Shown here in pieces: positions 1 to 8,211 of a DNA stretch of 64,000 nucleotides. The DNA lies in contig NZ_NXLL01000007.1 of the NCBI RefSeq assembly GCF_003364115.1, forward strand, positions 18,373 through 82,372. The letters run 5' to 3'. The stretch is from Helicobacter sp. MIT 00-7814 (GTDB lineage: Bacteria > Campylobacterota > Campylobacteria > Campylobacterales > Helicobacteraceae). Positions within the stretch are counted from its first letter, which is position 1, and each line of letters opens with the position of its first letter. Made by a program: the position numbers and the translations under genes. A model generated the notes under the pieces. That model was not told the DNA's origin. It did no database searches and saw only the letters and a program-made list of their open reading frames with translations.

Positions 1-191
1 TCTCACTTGAATATGTGATTTAAGTAAGAATTAAAAGCGTGCTTTTGGCGCGCTTGCGCTTAGTTAAAATTTTTGAATTGTGGAGAATCTAGCGGAGATT
101 CTCTAAACTTCAGAAATTTTTTAAATCTGTAAGATTTTAAGGAATTTCTGACGCCTTTAGTTAGGTGTAAGGAAAAATTTAAGGAGAAATT

Positions 192-731
192 ATGAGTAAT
201 CAAAAACCAGTAGCAACGAGCTGCACGAGATTAGATCCGATTGATAAGGCAGGATTAGAAGCTTTGATAAAAGATGGCAAGGCAAATCCAGATGTGATAA
301 AAACGCTCAAATGTAAAACCGTCGCAGAGGGGCGTTTCCGCCATGCGAACTATATCCGCAACCTCCCAGCTTACATTGTCGATGAGCCACCAACCTTGCT
401 TGGCGATGACACCGCGCCAAACCCTAGCGAAGCGGTGTTAGCAGCGCTTGGAAGCTGTTTGGCTGTGGGGATTCACGCAAATGCAATCGCGCAAGATATT
501 GTCATCACAAAGCTTGAATTGGAATTGGAAGGTGATTTAAACATTACCGCTGTTTGGGGCACGGGCGATCTTTCAAAAGACAAACCGCTAGGCTTTACGC
601 AGGTGCGTGTGAAAGTGATTTTAGAATCTAATGCCTCAAAACAAAAGCAAGATGAGCTCATCGCGCATGCGACGAAGTATTCCCCGGTGGCAAACACTAT
701 CTTGCGCGCGGTAGATTTGGATATACAATAA
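192..731 (+). CDS. OsmC/Ohr-family (organic hydroperoxide resistance / peroxiredoxin-like) protein
   Basis: 179-aa ORF with AAGGAG RBS; size and conserved Cys-containing segment (LGSCLAVG) typical of OsmC-like proteins; call from family-level resemblance only. Confidence 0.55.
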   Translation: MSNQKPVATSCTRLDPIDKAGLEALIKDGKANPDVIKTLKCKTVAEGRFRHANYIRNLPAYIVDEPPTLLGDDTAPNPSEAVLAALGSCLAVGIHANAIAQDIVITKLELELEGDLNITAVWGTGDLSKDKPLGFTQVRVKVILESNASKQKQDELIAHATKYSPVANTILRAVDLDIQ

Positions 732-1801
732 TGTCCGCGCAGATAAACGCGCTAGATTCCGAGCTTTTGCAAAATGCGCTTGCGGGCTTAAAAAGCGAGC
801 GTGCAAAAATCCACGCCGGAAGCTACCCTAGCGAGATTTTACACGCATTTGGCAAGGCTGGGCTGTATGAACCCTTTGCCAAAAACGGCGCAAAAGGCTT
901 GCAAGAAGCGCTTCTTAGCGTGCAAAAAGTTTCAGAATCTTGCGGAAATAGTGGCTTTTGCGTGTGGTGTCATCAAGCGCTTTTGTGGTATTTACTAAAC
1001 TCTGCGAATAAAACTAGCGCGCAAAAGGAGCTTTTCTCAAAGCTTGCAAGCGGGGAAATACTCGGTGGCACGGGGCTTTCAAATCCACTCAAAGCTTTTG
1101 TAGGCTTAGATAAAATGCGCCTAAGTGCAAAGCGCGTAGAGGGCGGATTTATCATCAATGGCACTTTAGCATGGGTGTCAAATCTAGCGCCCGGGCATTA
1201 TTTTGCCTTTATCGCGGAGGTTGAAAATTCTAAGGATTCTCAACCATGTCCGCCAAAGCCCAAAGAATGCATTATGGCGCTGGCGTGCTGTGAGGGCGCG
1301 CTTAAACTAAAGCCAACCACGCCTTTTTGCGCGCTGGAGGGCTCGGGGACTTATGCCACGCAGTTTAGGGATTATTTTGTGAGTGAAAAAATGGTGCTAG
1401 CAAGCCCGGCAAGCGCGATGATTCCAAAGATTAACGCGGGGTTTGTGCTGCTACAATGTGGCATGGGGCTAGGTATGAGTGAAGGCGCGATAAGGGCGAT
1501 GCAAAGAAACTGCCACAATAAAGCGCGCGTGCAAACGCTCTGTGCGCAAAAAGAAAAGTTAGAGCAAAGAGTGGCGAAAATCGCGCAAAACCCTTACGCA
1601 AAAGGTGCTTTTAGTGCGTCATTGCGCGCGAAGCTTGCAATTATCAAGCTTTTAAATGAGCTAGTCACTCTTTGTGTTTTGCAAAATGGCGCTAGCGGGT
1701 ATTTCCAAGGCGCGTATGCGAGCAAACTTCTTTTGGAATCTGCATTTTTTGGGATTGTAAGCCCAAGCCAAGGGCATATACAAAAGATTTTGGAAGCTTA
1801 G
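731..1801 (+). CDS. flavin-dependent oxidoreductase of acyl-CoA dehydrogenase-like fold (tentative)
   Basis: 356-aa ORF translationally coupled to upstream gene (ATAATG overlap); weak resemblance to ACAD-type N-terminal/middle domains; no firm motif. Confidence 0.3.
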   Translation: MSAQINALDSELLQNALAGLKSERAKIHAGSYPSEILHAFGKAGLYEPFAKNGAKGLQEALLSVQKVSESCGNSGFCVWCHQALLWYLLNSANKTSAQKELFSKLASGEILGGTGLSNPLKAFVGLDKMRLSAKRVEGGFIINGTLAWVSNLAPGHYFAFIAEVENSKDSQPCPPKPKECIMALACCEGALKLKPTTPFCALEGSGTYATQFRDYFVSEKMVLASPASAMIPKINAGFVLLQCGMGLGMSEGAIRAMQRNCHNKARVQTLCAQKEKLEQRVAKIAQNPYAKGAFSASLRAKLAIIKLLNELVTLCVLQNGASGYFQGAYASKLLLESAFFGIVSPSQGHIQKILEA

Positions 1802-1804
1802 TCC

Positions 1805-1915
1805 TTGTGTCACTTGTGCGGGGTTTTGTCCGCACAAGTTCCGATCCTATTCCTTCAATTAGTATCGTCTGCGTGGAAACGAATCGCACTTCGCCTCCGC
1901 TTCGCGCGCATACTC
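1805..1915. repeat. GC-rich palindromic repeat element (hairpin 1812-1821/1830-1839 plus conserved tail gaatcgcacttcgcctccgcttcgcgcgcatactc)
   Basis: perfect 10-bp inverted repeat acttgtgcgg/ccgcacaagt; related copies at 54425-54530, 19840-19875, 20670-20715. Confidence 0.5.
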
Positions 1916-1970
1916 TATCTTTTTTAATTAATGAGATTGTGAGATTCTATCGCCTTAGCTTAAAATCCAC

Positions 1971-2672
1971 TTATTTGCGCTTTTTGATTTCTGCGATACT
2001 TTCTACCACCACGCCCACGATGAGATTTAGCACGATAAAATTTGTAATGCAAATAAAGCTCACAAACACTGCCCACGCCCAATGATATTCCGCCATTACC
2101 GGGCGCACGATTCCCATCGACCAAGATTCTAGCGTCATTATTTGGAATAGCGTATAAAAGCTCTCCCCCAGACTTCCAAACCAATCCGGGAACTTCTCGC
2201 CAAAAAGATTCACACACAAAACCCCATAAGTGTAGTAAAACACCACAAGAAGCGCGAGAATCCCAAGCATTGAAGGCAGAGTATTTAGCATAGCAGAAGA
2301 GATAAGGCGCATTGATGGGATAACGCTAAGCAAGCGGAAAACTCGTATCACGCGCAATGCTCTAAGCACAGATATACCATTGCCCGCCGCCACGCTCACA
2401 ATGACGATAATAAAATCAAACCAATTCCACCCGCTCTCTTTGCCTATGAAAAATCTAAATCCATACGCCATTATGCGCGCCAAAATTTCTACTACAAAAA
2501 TCACCAAACATACACTATCAACGCCGCTAAGCACCGCACCAAAGCGCGCGCTTACAGGCTGTATCGTATCAAGCCCCAAAGTAAGCGCGTTTAAAAGAAT
2601 TATGCTAGTGATAAAAATACTCCACTTAGTGGATTCCAATATGCGTCTAAGCCATGAAAAACACTCAAGCAT
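1971..2672 (-). CDS. NaChBac-family prokaryotic voltage-gated sodium channel (single 6-TM domain)
   Basis: S4 voltage sensor with Arg every third residue (LRALRVIRVFRLLSVIPSMRL); pore/selectivity filter FQIMTLESWSMGIVRP nearly identical to NaChBac/NavAb TLESWSM; WNWFDF S3 motif; ends right after S6 (no C-terminal coiled coil). Confidence 0.9.
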   Translation of the reverse strand: MLECFSWLRRILESTKWSIFITSIILLNALTLGLDTIQPVSARFGAVLSGVDSVCLVIFVVEILARIMAYGFRFFIGKESGWNWFDFIIVIVSVAAGNGISVLRALRVIRVFRLLSVIPSMRLISSAMLNTLPSMLGILALLVVFYYTYGVLCVNLFGEKFPDWFGSLGESFYTLFQIMTLESWSMGIVRPVMAEYHWAWAVFVSFICITNFIVLNLIVGVVVESIAEIKKRK

Positions 2673-2680
2673 AAAGCCCC

Positions 2681-3040
2681 CTAGTTTTGTATCGCTACTA
2701 TTATGAAAAACACCACGACTACTAGCGCGATGATTTTGCCAATTTTCGTGGATAGGATTTTGCCAAGGATATTGCCTAGTATTTCTCCGCCTGCCATTCC
2801 TGCGCTAAACGCATCGGGATTAGATTTTCTTGCGTTAAGCAGTTTTGTTGTGGTGCCATCGTTAAAAGTGATAAGCAAGATTCCACCATCTGAATCAAAT
2901 CTACTTCTGCTTATCTCTCGTCTGCCGCTTTCGTCCATATAAGAGTAGCTAGCGACTTTTTCATAAACGCGCTGTGAGCCGTTTCCTTGAGTTATGATGA
3001 GTTTTGAGCCTTGTTGTGTGATATTTTTTATTGTTGCCAT
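2681..3040 (-). CDS. hypothetical small protein with C-terminal transmembrane anchor
   Basis: 119-aa ORF, hydrophobic C-terminus (IIALVVVVFFIIVAI); 8 nt upstream of channel gene on same strand. Confidence 0.4.
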   Translation of the reverse strand: MATIKNITQQGSKLIITQGNGSQRVYEKVASYSYMDESGRREISRSRFDSDGGILLITFNDGTTTKLLNARKSNPDAFSAGMAGGEILGNILGKILSTKIGKIIALVVVVFFIIVAIQN

Positions 3041-3076
3041 TGTTTGTTCCTTTCAAATGTGGCGTATCAAGTGGGA

Positions 3077-3739
3077 TTATTGAAATTTATACAAAAGGAT
3101 TTTGTCCTGCATTTGGTTGTAAGATTCTATGTCGCCGAGCTGGAAATACATTTTTGCTAGCTCTTGGAGTTGCTCTATATTTGGCGCAGTTTGAGCTGTA
3201 TTTTGGCTAGCTCCATTTTGACTATTTGGCGCGTTTTTATCCAAATCTTTTTCTATATCCTTTAGCACTTGCAAGGCTTTGGCAGTATCGATTGTTTGTG
3301 TTTCATCTTGCGTGCCTTGTGTGGAATCTAGCCCATCTAATTTAGAATCTAGCCCGCTTTTATCTTGCGCTTTTTGCGTTTCTTTGGCATAGATTTTGGT
3401 TAGATTCTGCTTTGGTAGCAAGGATATGAGCGCATTTTTATCTTTTGTGAGATCATTTTGAAGCTGTGAGATTCTGATACTTTCTAGCTTTGGATCGTTT
3501 TGCTTGAGGTGCGCTAGGAGTTGCGATCGCGCATAGATTCGCGCGCGTGCTTGTCCTTTGGCGTCAGCCTTATCCACAATAGGCGTGCAAATCACAAAAT
3601 ATTCCTGCCCCTCCAATGCTTGCTCTAATACCTTAGAATCCTTGCCCTCACATATTTGCTTAGCCTTTTCAAGTGGCGCGCCTTGCAATATCGCTACTTG
3701 CGCGCAAAGTAAAAGCGTGCAAATCCTAGAAGTCTTCAT
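3077..3739 (-). CDS. hypothetical secreted protein (signal peptide, Q/D-rich C-terminal half)
   Basis: ORF 3077-3772; start moved to Met12 (3739) where a signal peptide MKTSRICTLLLCAQVAILQG begins and overlap with upstream gene is removed; start choice uncertain. Confidence 0.45.
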   Translation of the reverse strand: MKTSRICTLLLCAQVAILQGAPLEKAKQICEGKDSKVLEQALEGQEYFVICTPIVDKADAKGQARARIYARSQLLAHLKQNDPKLESIRISQLQNDLTKDKNALISLLPKQNLTKIYAKETQKAQDKSGLDSKLDGLDSTQGTQDETQTIDTAKALQVLKDIEKDLDKNAPNSQNGASQNTAQTAPNIEQLQELAKMYFQLGDIESYNQMQDKILLYKFQ

Positions 3740-4232
3740 ATTTTTTGCTTGGCTTTTTTGGTTTCGCGTCACGATTCCAGCCTAGTGTCACGCGCACGAC
3801 TTTTGAGCTTTTATTTACCTGCGCTTTTATCGTTACGACATTTTTGAGTATGGCTTGAGATTGTGAGCTGATATTTTGCGTGAGCGTATCGACATCTTTT
3901 TTGCTGACACTTGCTTCGCCTTCAGAGCTTTGCTCGCTTAGGATTTTGCTTAGTTGTTCTTGGGACTCTTGAGATTTGATATCCTCGCTTAGGTATTTGC
4001 TGATATAGGCTTTGGCGGATAGCTCGGCTTTGGTGGTGGCTTGGCGTATATCTTTGGCATCACCAAAGTGATAGCTTGCCTCGCCGATAGAGATGATACG
4101 CGTGATTTCTTTAGTCTGCGGGTTTATGACGATTTCATTTCTTTGCACACCTAGCGTTTGCATATCTTCAAAGTCATCAGCGAGCCCTACGCTCACACAG
4201 CATATTAAAAGTAAAGAAAGAAGTTTTTTCAT
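3726..4232 (-). CDS. putative lipoprotein, possibly LPP20-like
   Basis: AAGGAG RBS; signal peptide with Cys (LLLICCVSVG); 168 aa, size/composition reminiscent of Helicobacter Lpp20-family lipoproteins; family call tentative. Confidence 0.45.
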   Translation of the reverse strand: MKKLLSLLLICCVSVGLADDFEDMQTLGVQRNEIVINPQTKEITRIISIGEASYHFGDAKDIRQATTKAELSAKAYISKYLSEDIKSQESQEQLSKILSEQSSEGEASVSKKDVDTLTQNISSQSQAILKNVVTIKAQVNKSSKVVRVTLGWNRDAKPKKPSKKYEDF

Positions 4233-4255
4233 GGTTTTGTCTCCTTGAGTGTTTT

Positions 4256-5455
4256 TTATTGTTTTTTGAGCGAAAATGAAGCTTTTATTTCACTAAGCTT
4301 TTTTACCTCCTCTTGTGTGAGATAAACTACCACCATAATATCTGGCGCATCTACGAGGAATTTACCGCCATAAGGCACTAGGAATCTATTTGGCTCATAG
4401 TTTCGTGCTGCGTTATATTCCTCCTCGCTAAACTTTTCCAATTTATGCTTATTTACATGAGCTACAGCATCATTTCCTTCTGCTGGATTCTCTTGAAAAT
4501 AATTAGGAGTAAAAAATCTTTTTGCAGGTGGGAATTCTTTATTATTTGCATCAAAAAATCTCACCTGTAGTTTTCCATAGTCAAATTTATTTAACTCTGA
4601 TTGCACATAGTTTTGAAACAAATCATTAATCCTTAGACTCCACAATACCTGCACTGCTGGCGCAAGGGTATAAAATCTCACAACGCTAGCACTGCGAATT
4701 CCGCCTATCCCAAAAAAGCTATAAGGAGCCCGACAGCCTCCATTGCTTTCACTCTCACTACTATCGCAAACCTGCCCTGCACTAGAGAGAAGCTTTTTCA
4801 CACCTTCTAGGTAGCCCTTTTGATATTTGATGCTTAATGTAAGCACATAGGCTTTATATTTGGGATCTTTTGGCATTTTAAAGGTATAGCACCAATACAC
4901 CTCATCGCGGCAATATTGATAAATCTCCGTAAGCTCTAATGGATCAAATTTCAAAATCTTTGTCTCCCATGCCTCGCCACTTTTTAGCGGCTCTATAACA
5001 GTAGCTTGGAATGCCTCTTGGAAGTTTTCTGCTTTTTTGTGGCTTTCATCGACATAGACTTTGAAAGTCCCAGAGTTCATATCTTTGACATCGACATTGA
5101 GATCTTTTAGCACGCCTACAAGCTTGCCATCTTCTATTTCTACTTGCGCTTTGACTTCATAGAGCCCATGCTGATTTTTATTAGCTGAAAGCTGTTTATA
5201 GTCCAGCACATACGCATTGCTAAAGCCGATTATTTTTTCATTGAGATTCTCATCTTCTAGCACTTGTTTGGTGCGGACGTATTCGCCCATAGATTCTCGC
5301 ACGGCGTTGGCTATGGCATCTTTTTTAGCAGCTTCTACGCTTTCACCTATGCCAATAGATTCTGTCGTTATGCTAGCGTTGAGTCCTTGCAGAAAAACAA
5401 AGGCAAAAAGACAGGCGCATATTTGCGCGCGGAATGTTTGATAAATAGTTTTCAT
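4256..5455 (-). CDS. hypothetical secreted protein (399 aa)
   Basis: AAGGAG RBS overlapping stop codon of upstream DUF285 gene (translational coupling); N-terminal signal peptide; no recognisable domain. Confidence 0.5.
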   Translation of the reverse strand: MKTIYQTFRAQICACLFAFVFLQGLNASITTESIGIGESVEAAKKDAIANAVRESMGEYVRTKQVLEDENLNEKIIGFSNAYVLDYKQLSANKNQHGLYEVKAQVEIEDGKLVGVLKDLNVDVKDMNSGTFKVYVDESHKKAENFQEAFQATVIEPLKSGEAWETKILKFDPLELTEIYQYCRDEVYWCYTFKMPKDPKYKAYVLTLSIKYQKGYLEGVKKLLSSAGQVCDSSESESNGGCRAPYSFFGIGGIRSASVVRFYTLAPAVQVLWSLRINDLFQNYVQSELNKFDYGKLQVRFFDANNKEFPPAKRFFTPNYFQENPAEGNDAVAHVNKHKLEKFSEEEYNAARNYEPNRFLVPYGGKFLVDAPDIMVVVYLTQEEVKKLSEIKASFSLKKQ

Positions 5456-5471
5456 TAGCGCTCCTTAGCGA

Positions 5472-7337
5472 TTATATGCGTCTTTTAAATTCTCTTACGC
5501 ATGACTCGTTGCGACCACAGCGCTTGCATCGATAATAGTCTTTTTCTTCACCAACTTTGTAGCTTACTCTTCTATAACTACCATCGCTTTGCTTCTCATC
5601 TTGGGTGATAATATTTTCACTCAATAACTCCGTCTTTACGAGTTTCCAGCAAAAATAGTTTCCACAGGATTCGCAGTAAGTATCACCTTTAATGCCGTAA
5701 AATACACCAACTATAGAAAGCACGATTAAAATCGCCCAAATGGTGAAAAATAATTCTTCTGAATATGCAACTCCAAAATATTTTAAAATTGCAACAATAA
5801 GCAATGTAAGGAAAAACCCAACTAAACCGCCTACGAGGATACCTCCTCCCAAAAATGACACGAGTATAGTGCCAAACCTAGTAGAAGTGCGATACTTCCA
5901 ATCTATTTTTTTAGTATTAGCGCGCTGTTTTTTCATTCGTGCTTCTTTTTTGTATTCTGGGGAGCTTATGTCATCTTGCTTGAAGCTTGTCGCACCTTCA
6001 AACATATTCTTCATACTCAAAACTTTGCTTACATTCCATTTATTAAGTGGTTGATTAAAGCTTGTCGCACCTGCAAACATATGTCCCATATTTATAACAC
6101 TACTTACATTCCATTTATTAAGTGGTTGATTAAAGCTTGCCGCATCCGAAAACATAAGAGACATATGTGCAACATTGCTTGTATCCCAATTATTAAGTGG
6201 TTGGTTGAAGCTTTTGGCGCGCTTAAACATACCAGTCATACCTGTAACACTACTTACATTCCATTTATTAAGTGGTTGATTGAAATTTTCCACACCTGAA
6301 AACATAAGCCCCATATCTGTAACACTACTTACATCCCATTTATCAAGTGGTTGATTAAAGCTTGTCGCACCTGCAAACATACACTGCATATCTGTAACAC
6401 TACTTACATTCCAATTATTAAGCGGTTGATTGAAGCTTTTGGCACTCATAAACATACTATTCATATCTGTAACACTACTTACATCCCAATTATCAAGTGG
6501 TTGATTGAAATATTCTGCATTCTCAAACATACTACTCATATCTGTAACATTACTTACATCCCAAGTCTCTATACCGCTAAAGTCCTTGCGCTTGCTCTCT
6601 TTGAAAAGCTCGCTCATATTAGTGATAGCGCTTGTATCAATATCTGCTAATGAGACATCTTCATCAAAAGCTAAAACTTTTAATACTATAGGGCTAGTTG
6701 GCTTATATTTTCCATTAATTTTTTGAAACCCTTTATTAAACCAGCTAGGGAGGCTCTGCATACCGCTAGATTCAAACATATCTTTTGCAGATATTGCTTT
6801 AACATTCCAGCTTTCAAGATTTTGATTGAAGTTTGTAGCATCCTTAAATATAAGAGCCATATCCATAACTTTGCTTACATTCCATTTATCAAGTGGTTGG
6901 TTAAAGCTTGTTGCACTCATAAATATACCTCTAATTTCTGCAACATTGCTTGTATTCCAATTGTTAAGTGGCTGGTTAAAGCTCGTTGCATGCGCAAACA
7001 TACCTTTCATATTTGTAACATTACTTATATCCCAAGAATTAAGCGGCTGATTAAAGCTTTTCGCATCTGCAAACATAAGAGACATATCTGTAACACTACT
7101 TACATCCCAAGAATCAAGTGGTTGGTTAAAGCTTGTTGTACCCGCAAACATAAACTTCATATTTGTAACATTACTTACATCCCAAGTCTCTATACCGCTA
7201 AAGTCCTTGCGCTTGCTCTCTTTGAAAAGTTCGCTCATATCAGTGATAGCACTTGTATCAATATCTCCTAAGTAGATACTTTCATCATTAACTAGATTTT
7301 GTAGTTCTTCTTTTGAGGTGGGTTTGTATTTTGCCAT
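5472..7337 (-). CDS. DUF285 (BspA-type / Mycoplasma-type leucine-rich repeat) protein with internal module duplication, two predicted TM helices and C-terminal C4 zinc ribbon
   Basis: about 12 copies of the ~26-aa repeat F..A..FNQPL..WdVS.VT.M..MF; residues 1-215 and 215-430 are near-duplicates (both contain IDTSAITDMSELFKESKRKDFSGIETWDVSNVT); hydrophobic stretches then CESCGNYFC...CKRCGRNESC; no signal peptide. Confidence 0.7.
   Translation of the reverse strand: MAKYKPTSKEELQNLVNDESIYLGDIDTSAITDMSELFKESKRKDFSGIETWDVSNVTNMKFMFAGTTSFNQPLDSWDVSSVTDMSLMFADAKSFNQPLNSWDISNVTNMKGMFAHATSFNQPLNNWNTSNVAEIRGIFMSATSFNQPLDKWNVSKVMDMALIFKDATNFNQNLESWNVKAISAKDMFESSGMQSLPSWFNKGFQKINGKYKPTSPIVLKVLAFDEDVSLADIDTSAITNMSELFKESKRKDFSGIETWDVSNVTDMSSMFENAEYFNQPLDNWDVSSVTDMNSMFMSAKSFNQPLNNWNVSSVTDMQCMFAGATSFNQPLDKWDVSSVTDMGLMFSGVENFNQPLNKWNVSSVTGMTGMFKRAKSFNQPLNNWDTSNVAHMSLMFSDAASFNQPLNKWNVSSVINMGHMFAGATSFNQPLNKWNVSKVLSMKNMFEGATSFKQDDISSPEYKKEARMKKQRANTKKIDWKYRTSTRFGTILVSFLGGGILVGGLVGFFLTLLIVAILKYFGVAYSEELFFTIWAILIVLSIVGVFYGIKGDTYCESCGNYFCWKLVKTELLSENIITQDEKQSDGSYRRVSYKVGEEKDYYRCKRCGRNESCVREFKRRI
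5740..7271. repeat. coding periodic repeat array (~78-bp DUF285 units) with higher-order ~620-bp direct duplication
   Basis: e.g. 6551-6665 vs 7176-7285 nearly identical; generates long spurious antisense ORFs. Confidence 0.7.
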
Positions 7338-7340
7338 GTT

Positions 7341-7967
7341 TTATCCTTTGTTATAAACTTTGCATTTTTCTTTATTTGCTTTGACATAATCGATAAAGTT
7401 TTGCACATCCTCTGCCTCTGTAATTTCGCCATAGCAAGTTTGCCTCTCTGGGAGATTTGGGCGGATATTTTCAGGGATGCTAAGCGCATTTTTAGGGCCA
7501 AAGTAGTAAAACTCCTCGCACACTAGCACAAAAAGTGATTTCAAATCATGTGTTTTATCATCATCATGTGATTGACATCCCGCATTATTATGTGAGCAAT
7601 CTGAACCTGCTTCACCATTTGAAGGGTGATTTTTATTTGGAAAAACTTTAAAGCCTTGTGGTTCGTCTGCGCTAGGCTCATAAATATTATCACCTTGCGT
7701 GTTGGTGGCATCCGGGCGCTTTTGTGGGTAAGATTCCCAATACTCGGCAAAAGTTAGCCTTTTGGTGATTTTGGCTAGGTAGATGAGCTTTTCTTTTCCT
7801 ATTTCTGAGCCATCAAGTGTTTTGGAGCTAAAGCCCGCTATCCACTCGCCAACTTTCGCCACCTCTCTAATATATGGCTTGCAAGTAGCAAGAGTAAGCA
7901 CGCCAAAATCATAATTTGGCGCAAATCCACTATCTACGGTCATTTTATATGAACGAAGTAAGGACAC
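7341..7967 (-). CDS. conserved hypothetical protein (N-terminal motif DSGFAPNYDFGVLTLATCKP; possibly Nmad2-like nucleotide-modification-associated domain)
   Basis: 208-aa ORF, GTG start at 7967 preceded by AGGAGG; 3-nt gap to DUF285 gene; family assignment from memory only. Confidence 0.4.
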   Translation of the reverse strand: MSLLRSYKMTVDSGFAPNYDFGVLTLATCKPYIREVAKVGEWIAGFSSKTLDGSEIGKEKLIYLAKITKRLTFAEYWESYPQKRPDATNTQGDNIYEPSADEPQGFKVFPNKNHPSNGEAGSDCSHNNAGCQSHDDDKTHDLKSLFVLVCEEFYYFGPKNALSIPENIRPNLPERQTCYGEITEAEDVQNFIDYVKANKEKCKVYNKG

Positions 7968-8013
7968 AGAACCTCCTAATTTATAAAATTAGCAAAAAAG
8001 AAGTCGCATTATG

Positions 8014-8023
8014 CCCCCCCCCC
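8014..8023. repeat. homopolymeric C10 tract (G10 on the minus/coding side) in promoter region of the 7967-1971 gene cluster
   Basis: minus strand reads TTTAATAAGGGGGGGGGGCATAATGCGAC...ATTAGGAGGTTCTGTG; tract abuts a CATAAT -10-like hexamer ~47 nt upstream of the GTG start. Confidence 0.85.
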
Positions 8024-8211
8024 TTATTAAACTTTACTTAAAAAAGCAAAACACAAGAGAATTTTTTTTAAAAAAATGTAGTTTTAGATTTTTGGGAGAT
8101 TTTTAGAAGTTTGGAATTGTGTGGGGAAAAATAAATTTAAAAAAAGGGATTAGTTCTTTTTCACTATTTTTTTTTACTATTTTAGGAATTTATGAAGCAA
8201 AAATTATTTTT

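Follow-up and report, generated by a model that had tools for sequence, protein, structure and literature searches.

We analysed a 64,000-nucleotide stretch of the genome of Helicobacter sp. MIT 00-7814 (contig NZ_NXLL01000007.1, positions 18,373 to 82,372 of the forward strand; "the window" below), in which seven co-directional minus-strand genes, here called g1 to g7, lie behind a guanine tract that forms part of a putative promoter. Every open reading frame that the initial annotation had described between 7967 and 1971 was present, with the packing of an operon, and the encoded proteins for which an exact look-up was made fell within accessions RDU55491-RDU55497 under the strain label Helicobacter sp. 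MIT 00-7814 / MIT 99-10781. The features of the block are as follows.

8008-8046, minus strand: putative phase-variable promoter (TTAAGT at 8041-8036, a 12-nt spacer, G10 at 8023-8014 and CATAAT at 8013-8008)
7341-7967, minus strand: g1, Nmad2-family protein of 208 aa with a GTG start, presumably cytoplasmic
5472-7337, minus strand: g2, protein of 621 aa in which DUF285/PARCEL repeats are fused to a module (~residues 480-621) with two transmembrane (TM) segments and a C4 zinc ribbon
4256-5455, minus strand: g3, first gene of a g3-g7 cassette, predicted exported protein of 399 aa with a putative LPP20/FlgT_N-like N-terminal domain
3726-4232, minus strand: g4, predicted exported protein of 168 aa with a putative LPP20-like fold
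3077-3739 (ATG start), minus strand: g5, predicted exported protein of ~220 aa; a GTG at 3772 would give a 231-aa form
2681-3040, minus strand: g6, tail-anchored protein of 119 aa
1971-2672, minus strand: g7, short voltage-gated Na+ channel of the BacNaV (bacterial voltage-gated sodium channel) type, 233 aa
1827-8187, no strand given: extent of the accessory block, from blastn against Helicobacter himalayensis CP014991

Junctions within the block ranged from a 14-nt overlap to a 36-nt gap; from g1 to g7 they measured 3, 16 and 23 nt, then the overlap between g4 and g5 (47 nt with the GTG start of g5), then 36 and 8 nt. A clear Shine-Dalgarno-like motif was found at six of the seven gene starts. 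That of g3 had been described as overlapping the stop codon of g2; the in-frame stop is the TAA at 5474-5472, with AAGGAG 5 nt after it, and the two do not overlap. The TAA within CGCTAAGG, considered as the g2 stop, was rejected as out of frame. Consensus scans of the block revealed no excess of internal promoters (12 matches vs 17.4 in shuffled sequence, with a consensus that models Helicobacter promoters poorly), called no excess of internal terminators (9 vs 6.4), and an Rfam search of 1500-8500 returned no family. The only hairpin position was downstream of g7, at ~1803-1835, ~140 nt past that gene, where the hairpin could terminate both convergent units. By its packing and the lack of any excess of internal terminators the block has the form of an operon, and we infer that a single transcript would span it.

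The G10 tract at 8014-8023 directly abuts CATAAT (8013-8008), confirming the reported placement of a G10 next to a -10-like hexamer ahead of the lead gene; 40 nt separate the hexamer from the g1 GTG at 7967. The tract is long enough for slippage at a homopolymer (about 8 or more), and this is the single G-tract promoter for all seven genes in the window. A generic sigma-70 consensus scan did not call the site, that consensus fitting Helicobacter promoters poorly. Alignment of ten operon starts (loci in relatives carry labels such as L019) revealed a common architecture of TTAAG[CT], 9-13 nt, G7-13 and [CT]ANAAT, of which the TTAAG box, the G run and A.AAT were invariant. The ten starts include both operons of Helicobacter sp. 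MIT 05-5293, the L019 cassette together with the next gene, and the channel operons of L014 and Campylobacter lanienae. The distance from TTAAG box to hexamer was 20-22 nt in all ten promoters and 22 nt in six, the window included, and shorter G runs were paired with longer non-G spacers. Since the total spacing from box to hexamer stays at 20-22 nt despite changes in G length, the G run appears to set a functionally constrained spacing.

Tract-length heterogeneity, which the initial annotation had anticipated, was found between related strains at the same position. At the locus of the window, L008 carries G9 vs the G10 described above; in a second lineage, orthologous tracts measured G11 in L012 and G13 in L010, and at least 13 in L009, where an assembly (N) gap follows. 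Several contigs end at such G tracts. Because promoter poly-G tracts with read-level length variation have been documented in Helicobacter canadensis, an enterohepatic species (PMC2823697), the switching proposed here would be of a known kind.

Two further arrangements bear on these tracts. In MIT 05-5293, near-identical G11 promoter cassettes, with ~40 nt of upstream sequence, head adjacent operons (L016 1341-1374 and 4536-4569), which suggests a duplicated or mobile promoter module. In the L005-L007 lineage, a C9 tract lies in the g3 homologue of L005 and L006 (L005 10618-10626; L006 2118-2126). The L005/L006 homologue is frameshifted into pieces of 241 and 124 aa, vs an intact 361-aa gene at L007 10001-11086, and switching in this lineage appears to be translational, inside g3, rather than at the promoter.

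The assignment of g7 to the NaChBac type held. The protein consists of a single six-TM domain (Pfam Ion_trans, E 8.1e-45) homologous to NaChBac and NavAb, and aligned with NavMs (5hvx) over residues 8-231 at E 1.7e-62, NavMs and NavAb both scoring ~1e-62. Its S4 segment, RALRVIRVFR, aligned to S4 of NavMs with four arginines, one at every third position, and its selectivity filter, TLESWSMGIVRPVM, is identical to that of NavMs, with the TLESW motif as TLESWSM. Since the end of g7 (residue 233) aligned to residue 230 of 277 in NavMs, a few residues after S6, g7 lacks the neck and the coiled-coil C-terminal domain. The nearest Helicobacter and Campylobacter homologues, 56-69% identical to g7, are likewise short (228-251 aa). 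We conclude that g7 is probably a canonical BacNaV without the C-terminal coiled coil, predicted to carry a Na+ current. Short BacNaV genes without g3-g5 are also the last genes of small operons headed by G-tract promoters, at L014 6600-8870 (G10) and L018 6260-8702 (G7). The other genes there specify TM2-domain proteins or different small membrane proteins, together with a small lipoprotein that contains Cys, and a T14/T18 tract also lies upstream in L014.

Hydrophobic N-termini were found in g3 and g4, and a weaker one in g5. One of these signal-peptide proteins had been called lipoprotein-like; inspection by eye found no canonical L-[AS]-[GA]-C lipobox in any of the three. The g3, g4 and g5 proteins of the window had no Pfam or NCBIfam match, and for g3 and g4 this includes Pfam LPP20 and FlgT_N. 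Among relatives, weak Pfam LPP20 matches occurred in 12 of 20 close g3 relatives (best E 0.0098), FlgT_N matches in 5 of 40 distant g3 members (best E 4.4e-6), and UniRef labels a g3-like member from Campylobacter showae as an FlgT N-terminal domain protein. Profiles of g3 found nothing in the PDB, whether E was allowed up to 10 or up to 1; for profiles of g4 and g5 (E up to 10), the matches were all at chance level (E > 0.6). The AlphaFold model of g4, built on a 4-sequence alignment, was poor. On this weak sequence and fold evidence, we hold with moderate confidence that the N-terminal domain of g3, and g4, are LPP20/FlgT_N-like periplasmic proteins. No paralogy was detectable among g3, g4 and g5 by profile-profile comparison.

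Beyond the window, some features of these families are kept. Members of the g4 family, in Helicobacter and as far as C. showae, share the C-terminal sequence Y-[END]-[DQ]-F (YEDF, YNDF, YDQF; window 3726-3740), a motif that may act as a docking or sorting signal. For g5, which had no family or PDB match and is 28% identical to its L007 counterpart, the alignment revealed a kept C-terminal helix motif, L.ELA.IY..LG....Y. The C-terminally anchored g6 (one TM segment) is 38% identical to a 133-aa protein in L019, the stop codon of which overlaps the channel start codon; g6 is present in some lineages only and absent in L007 and L016.

The two genes at the head of the block have other affinities. 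The 208-aa g1 product, described as a protein of unknown function, matched Pfam Nmad2 (PF18753) over residues 2-199 with 133.8 bits (gathering cutoff 26.1; E 7.3e-39), and the source record also names the Nmad2 family. A copy 59% identical to g1 stands in MIT 05-5293 in a separate G11-promoter operon just upstream of that strain's cassette. The initial description of g2, as a DUF285 protein with two TM helices, a C4 zinc ribbon, no signal peptide and a possibly cytoplasmic repeat domain, agrees with our data: g2 scored 504 bits with DUF285 (PF03382, Pfam) and 192 bits with TIGR02167 (NCBIfam; PARCEL), has two TM segments at ~488-553 and cysteines at 555, 558, 604 and 607 (CxxC...CxxC), and has no N-terminal hydrophobic segment that would mark it for export as in surface-displayed DUF285/BspA-like repeats. 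Because a strongly basic stretch precedes the first TM segment and the zinc ribbon follows the second, the repeats are predicted to be cytoplasmic. At the DNA level, 5958-7253 contains two arrays of 75-nt tandem repeats (6 and 4 copies, 62-80% identical). The arrays are a likely substrate for recombinational size variation, and the indel relative to L008 spans both. A 131-aa protein that stands alone in L007 shares 30% identity with the zinc-ribbon module of g2.

Comparison with relatives revealed that the block is accessory, a point that the initial annotation had suggested checking by synteny. By blastn against H. himalayensis CP014991, window 1-1826 and 8188-12600 aligned at ~88%, and 1827-8187 was absent from the syntenic site, which holds 1.1 kb with autotransporter remnants instead. 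There, at L023 6225-7354, H. himalayensis carries short open reading frames, one with a faint autotransporter match, so that this position resembles a hot spot at which envelope genes vary. In the species-representative genomes, an exact-peptide scan for g3 found no match and a g3 profile scan found only Helicobacter sp. CLO-3, and synteny was therefore taken from metagenome contigs. The metagenomic strain of L008 has the block at the same locus, with a g3 product 96% identical to that of the window. Window 5914-7350, precisely the stretch of the DUF285 repeats, is missing there, leaving a stand-alone TM/zinc-ribbon reading frame, the end of which is nearly the same as in the window, as is the g3 ribosome-binding site. 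At L008 9535-9990 this stand-alone gene is broken at a T8 run, which could be a further slippage site or an assembly error.

At other sites, the g3-g7 cassette travels with other head genes. The L009-L012 lineage, with a g3 product 84% identical, has the cassette at a different chromosomal site, where 90% DNA identity between the window and L009 covers 1971-5455, an interval bounded exactly by the g7 stop and the g3 start. The DUF285 gene of this lineage is another one, whose product has one TM segment, at the C-terminus, and no zinc ribbon, and in L009 Nmad2 is a 12-codon stub. In L005 and L007, where restriction-modification genes adjoin the cassette, the head genes encode first a small protein and a TM/zinc-ribbon protein that stands alone, then a membrane protein of the 8xMP family and a protein of 416 aa rich in Cys. 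The last two head genes (L007 6963-9886; L005 8570-9963) encode a member of Pfam 8xMP ("octameric membrane protein") and a protein with many CxxC repeats; the literature searched held no characterisation of either, and nothing relevant on Nmad2. In L016 (MIT 05-5293) and L019, a small protein homologous to that of L005/L007 accompanies an unrelated protein with two TM segments; this 221-aa protein was considered as a counterpart of the L007 8xMP protein and rejected, as the two have no similarity. Both Nmad2 and DUF285 are absent from L007 and L019.

Through these changes the order g3-g4-g5-(g6)-channel was kept in the window, L008, L009-12, L005-7, L016 and L019-20; six or more Helicobacter lineages carry the cassette, at no fewer than four genomic sites. 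The order from g3 to the channel persists across sites at 42-56% protein identity; between the window and L007, identity was 40% for g4, 28% for g5, 56% for the channel and 30% for the zinc-ribbon module. In CLO-3 only g3-g5 are present (83% identical to window 3074-5455), and the flanks examined contain no gene for a channel. The initial annotation had treated the seven genes as one system, and that view did not survive: L008 lacks DUF285, L009 retains only a stub of Nmad2, and neither gene is present in L007 or L019. From the distribution across relatives, therefore, the conserved unit is g3-g4-g5 plus the channel, with g6 optional and the Nmad2 and DUF285 genes as variable head genes. The earlier proposal that exported proteins are linked to a BacNaV fared better, the linkage being conserved across lineages and genomic sites.

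Other tracts lie in and near the window. At 9173-10110, a Methyltransf_23-type gene is split into reading frames of 101 and 188 aa at G11 (9425-9435); the gene is intact in H. himalayensis (309 aa) and split with G10 in L008. Some 1.4 kb from the block, it thus resembles a further phase-variable locus, here of the intragenic type. The local sequence, TTAGC-G11-CAAAAT, is also similar to the promoter cassette. A C10 homopolymer tract lies at 26152-26161.

The reading that we prefer, held with slightly more belief than doubt, is that the block is a composite, accessory, probably phase-variable and horizontally mobile contingency operon of enterohepatic Helicobacter, with new gene content. Slipped-strand mispairing in the G tract would alter the distance between TTAAG box and hexamer (22 nt here, the commonest among relatives), and this change would raise or lower transcription of one polycistronic message, some tract lengths corresponding to an ON state. 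The message would encode, at its head, a cytoplasmic Nmad2 enzyme and a membrane-anchored fusion of DUF285 and zinc ribbon with its repeats toward the cytoplasm, followed by the cassette with three exported proteins (g3-g5), the tail-anchored g6 and a BacNaV without coiled coil (g7). An LPP20/FlgT_N-like fold, in at least g3 and g4, would be typical of oligomeric periplasmic or outer-membrane-associated proteins. In the ON state, cells may gain a periplasmic LPP20-like assembly and a path for Na+ entry gated by depolarisation, altering both the envelope and its antigenic make-up and the physiology of Na+ and membrane potential. Switching could hedge a cost or benefit in gut colonisation.

Several observations weigh against this reading. 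The tract differences were seen between assemblies, not inside one population, and internal promoters may yet be present. There is no indication of what the Nmad2 or DUF285 protein contributes. The link between exported proteins and channel is also not obligatory: CLO-3 has g3 and g4 but no channel in the flanks examined, and C. showae encodes a g3-like protein with a homologue of g4 (hhalign 99.3%) after it, again without a channel. Channels 69% and 56% identical to g7 have unrelated upstream partners; that of L014, 69% identical, is preceded by TM2-domain proteins and a small lipoprotein, and the C. lanienae channel by other small proteins. Since g3-g4 occur without a channel, and near relatives of g7 with other partners, the link may be facultative. 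The C. showae pair (L021 8001-9953) is cargo in an integrated element with an integrase, Rad52, DUF932 and HigB/helix-turn-helix genes.

Three alternatives are also compatible with the data. The one that survives best, although we think it unlikely, is that the cassette encodes a dedicated channel complex: g7 would have g3-g5 (and g6) as its auxiliary subunits, which would assemble with it, localise it or gate it, the head genes being passengers. The order g3-g4-g5-(g6)-channel and its tight spacing are kept at several sites, the g6 stop overlaps the channel start codon in L019, all cassette channels lack the C-terminal domain present in NavMs and NavAb, and other short Campylobacterota channels also stand behind small lipoproteins or membrane proteins. 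Yet the g3-g4 pair is found apart from any channel in CLO-3 and in the C. showae mobile element, and g6 is missing from two lineages. A full profile search of the g3 family returned 1066 cluster representatives (111 at E <= 1e-10), far beyond the distribution of the cassette seen here, and the interaction is purely hypothetical. A bolder form of the same idea, that g3-g4-g5(-g6) are dedicated periplasmic or membrane auxiliary subunits of a BacNaV without coiled coil and that the promoter G tract switches the whole excitable module stochastically, seems to us quite improbable. If it held, prokaryotes would for the first time have a counterpart of the NaV beta or CaV alpha2-delta subunits of eukaryotes, and the module would provide a genetic handle on the role of a BacNaV in a host-associated bacterium. 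Literature searches on BacNaV auxiliary subunits or operons, and on BacNaV in Helicobacter or Campylobacter, returned nothing relevant.

We give less credence still to a coincidental juxtaposition, in which a recombination hot spot gathered contingency genes that are unrelated, share no function and each have a promoter. The head genes do vary freely, Nmad2 and the cassette have separate G11 promoters in MIT 05-5293, and H. himalayensis carries different (autotransporter) remnants at the block site. Against it stand the order from g3 to the channel, kept across sites at 42-56% protein identity, and, in the window, gaps no larger than 36 nt and a single G-tract promoter for all seven genes.

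Least credible is a conflict or defence island directed at phages or competitors, acting for instance by superinfection exclusion through the periplasmic proteins or by abortive infection through a depolarising channel, with Nmad2 as a nucleotide-modifying component. The accessory, mobile character of the block and its variable sites, the restriction-modification genes beside the cassette in L005 and L007, the integrase/Rad52/HigBA element around the C. showae pair, the link by name of Nmad2 to nucleotide modification, and the frequency with which restriction-modification systems of this group are under phase-variable control would all fit, but PADLOC (E <= 0.01) matched none of the seven proteins, the PHROGs matches were confined to the DUF285 repeats apart from two marginal ones, no sensor or nuclease domain was detected in the block, and g7 appears to be of the canonical Na+-selective voltage-gated BacNaV type, which is not a known defence effector.

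To our knowledge, the physiological role of bacterial voltage-gated sodium channels is poorly understood, though they are major structural models; with the length polymorphism of its promoter class, this locus offers natural ON/OFF variants, proteins that are candidate partners, and host colonisation as a setting for asking what such a channel does. The comparison also brings to light a G-tract promoter cassette that enterohepatic Helicobacter and Campylobacter can reuse. Should the genes prove functionally unlinked, the locus would be one more contingency locus only.

No description of the seven-gene combination, or of exported proteins combined with such a channel, was found in the literature searched, and the block differs from each of the known systems that it resembles. 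With the BacNaV channels NaChBac, NavAb of Arcobacter butzleri and NavMs, g7 shares the six-TM Ion_trans domain, the four S4 arginines and the TLESWSM filter; it differs in lacking the neck and coiled coil, and its cassette lies behind exported LPP20-like proteins and a G-tract promoter, partners and control of a kind that we did not find for any BacNaV in the literature searched. The exported proteins differ from Helicobacter pylori Lpp20 (HP1456), HP1454 and Tip-alpha in having no sequence-level PDB match even with profiles and no canonical lipobox, and we know of no H. pylori Lpp20-type gene that is linked to a channel. They also differ from FlgT (with FlgP), the LPP20/FlgT_N-type periplasmic proteins of the flagellar basal body: the block contains no flagellar genes, a BacNaV is not a stator, and the sequence similarity is marginal. 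The promoter has the closest parallels. Neisseria porA, opc and fetA and the poly-T of H. pylori sabA are promoter homopolymer contingency loci, and a tract of at least nine G between putative promoter elements, with length polymorphism, is what the block has in common with such loci in H. canadensis, Neisseria and H. pylori (sabA). Unlike in those loci, the tract directly abuts the -10-like hexamer, and the same cassette of TTAAG box, spacer, G run and -10 element is reused at the head of unrelated operons in several species.

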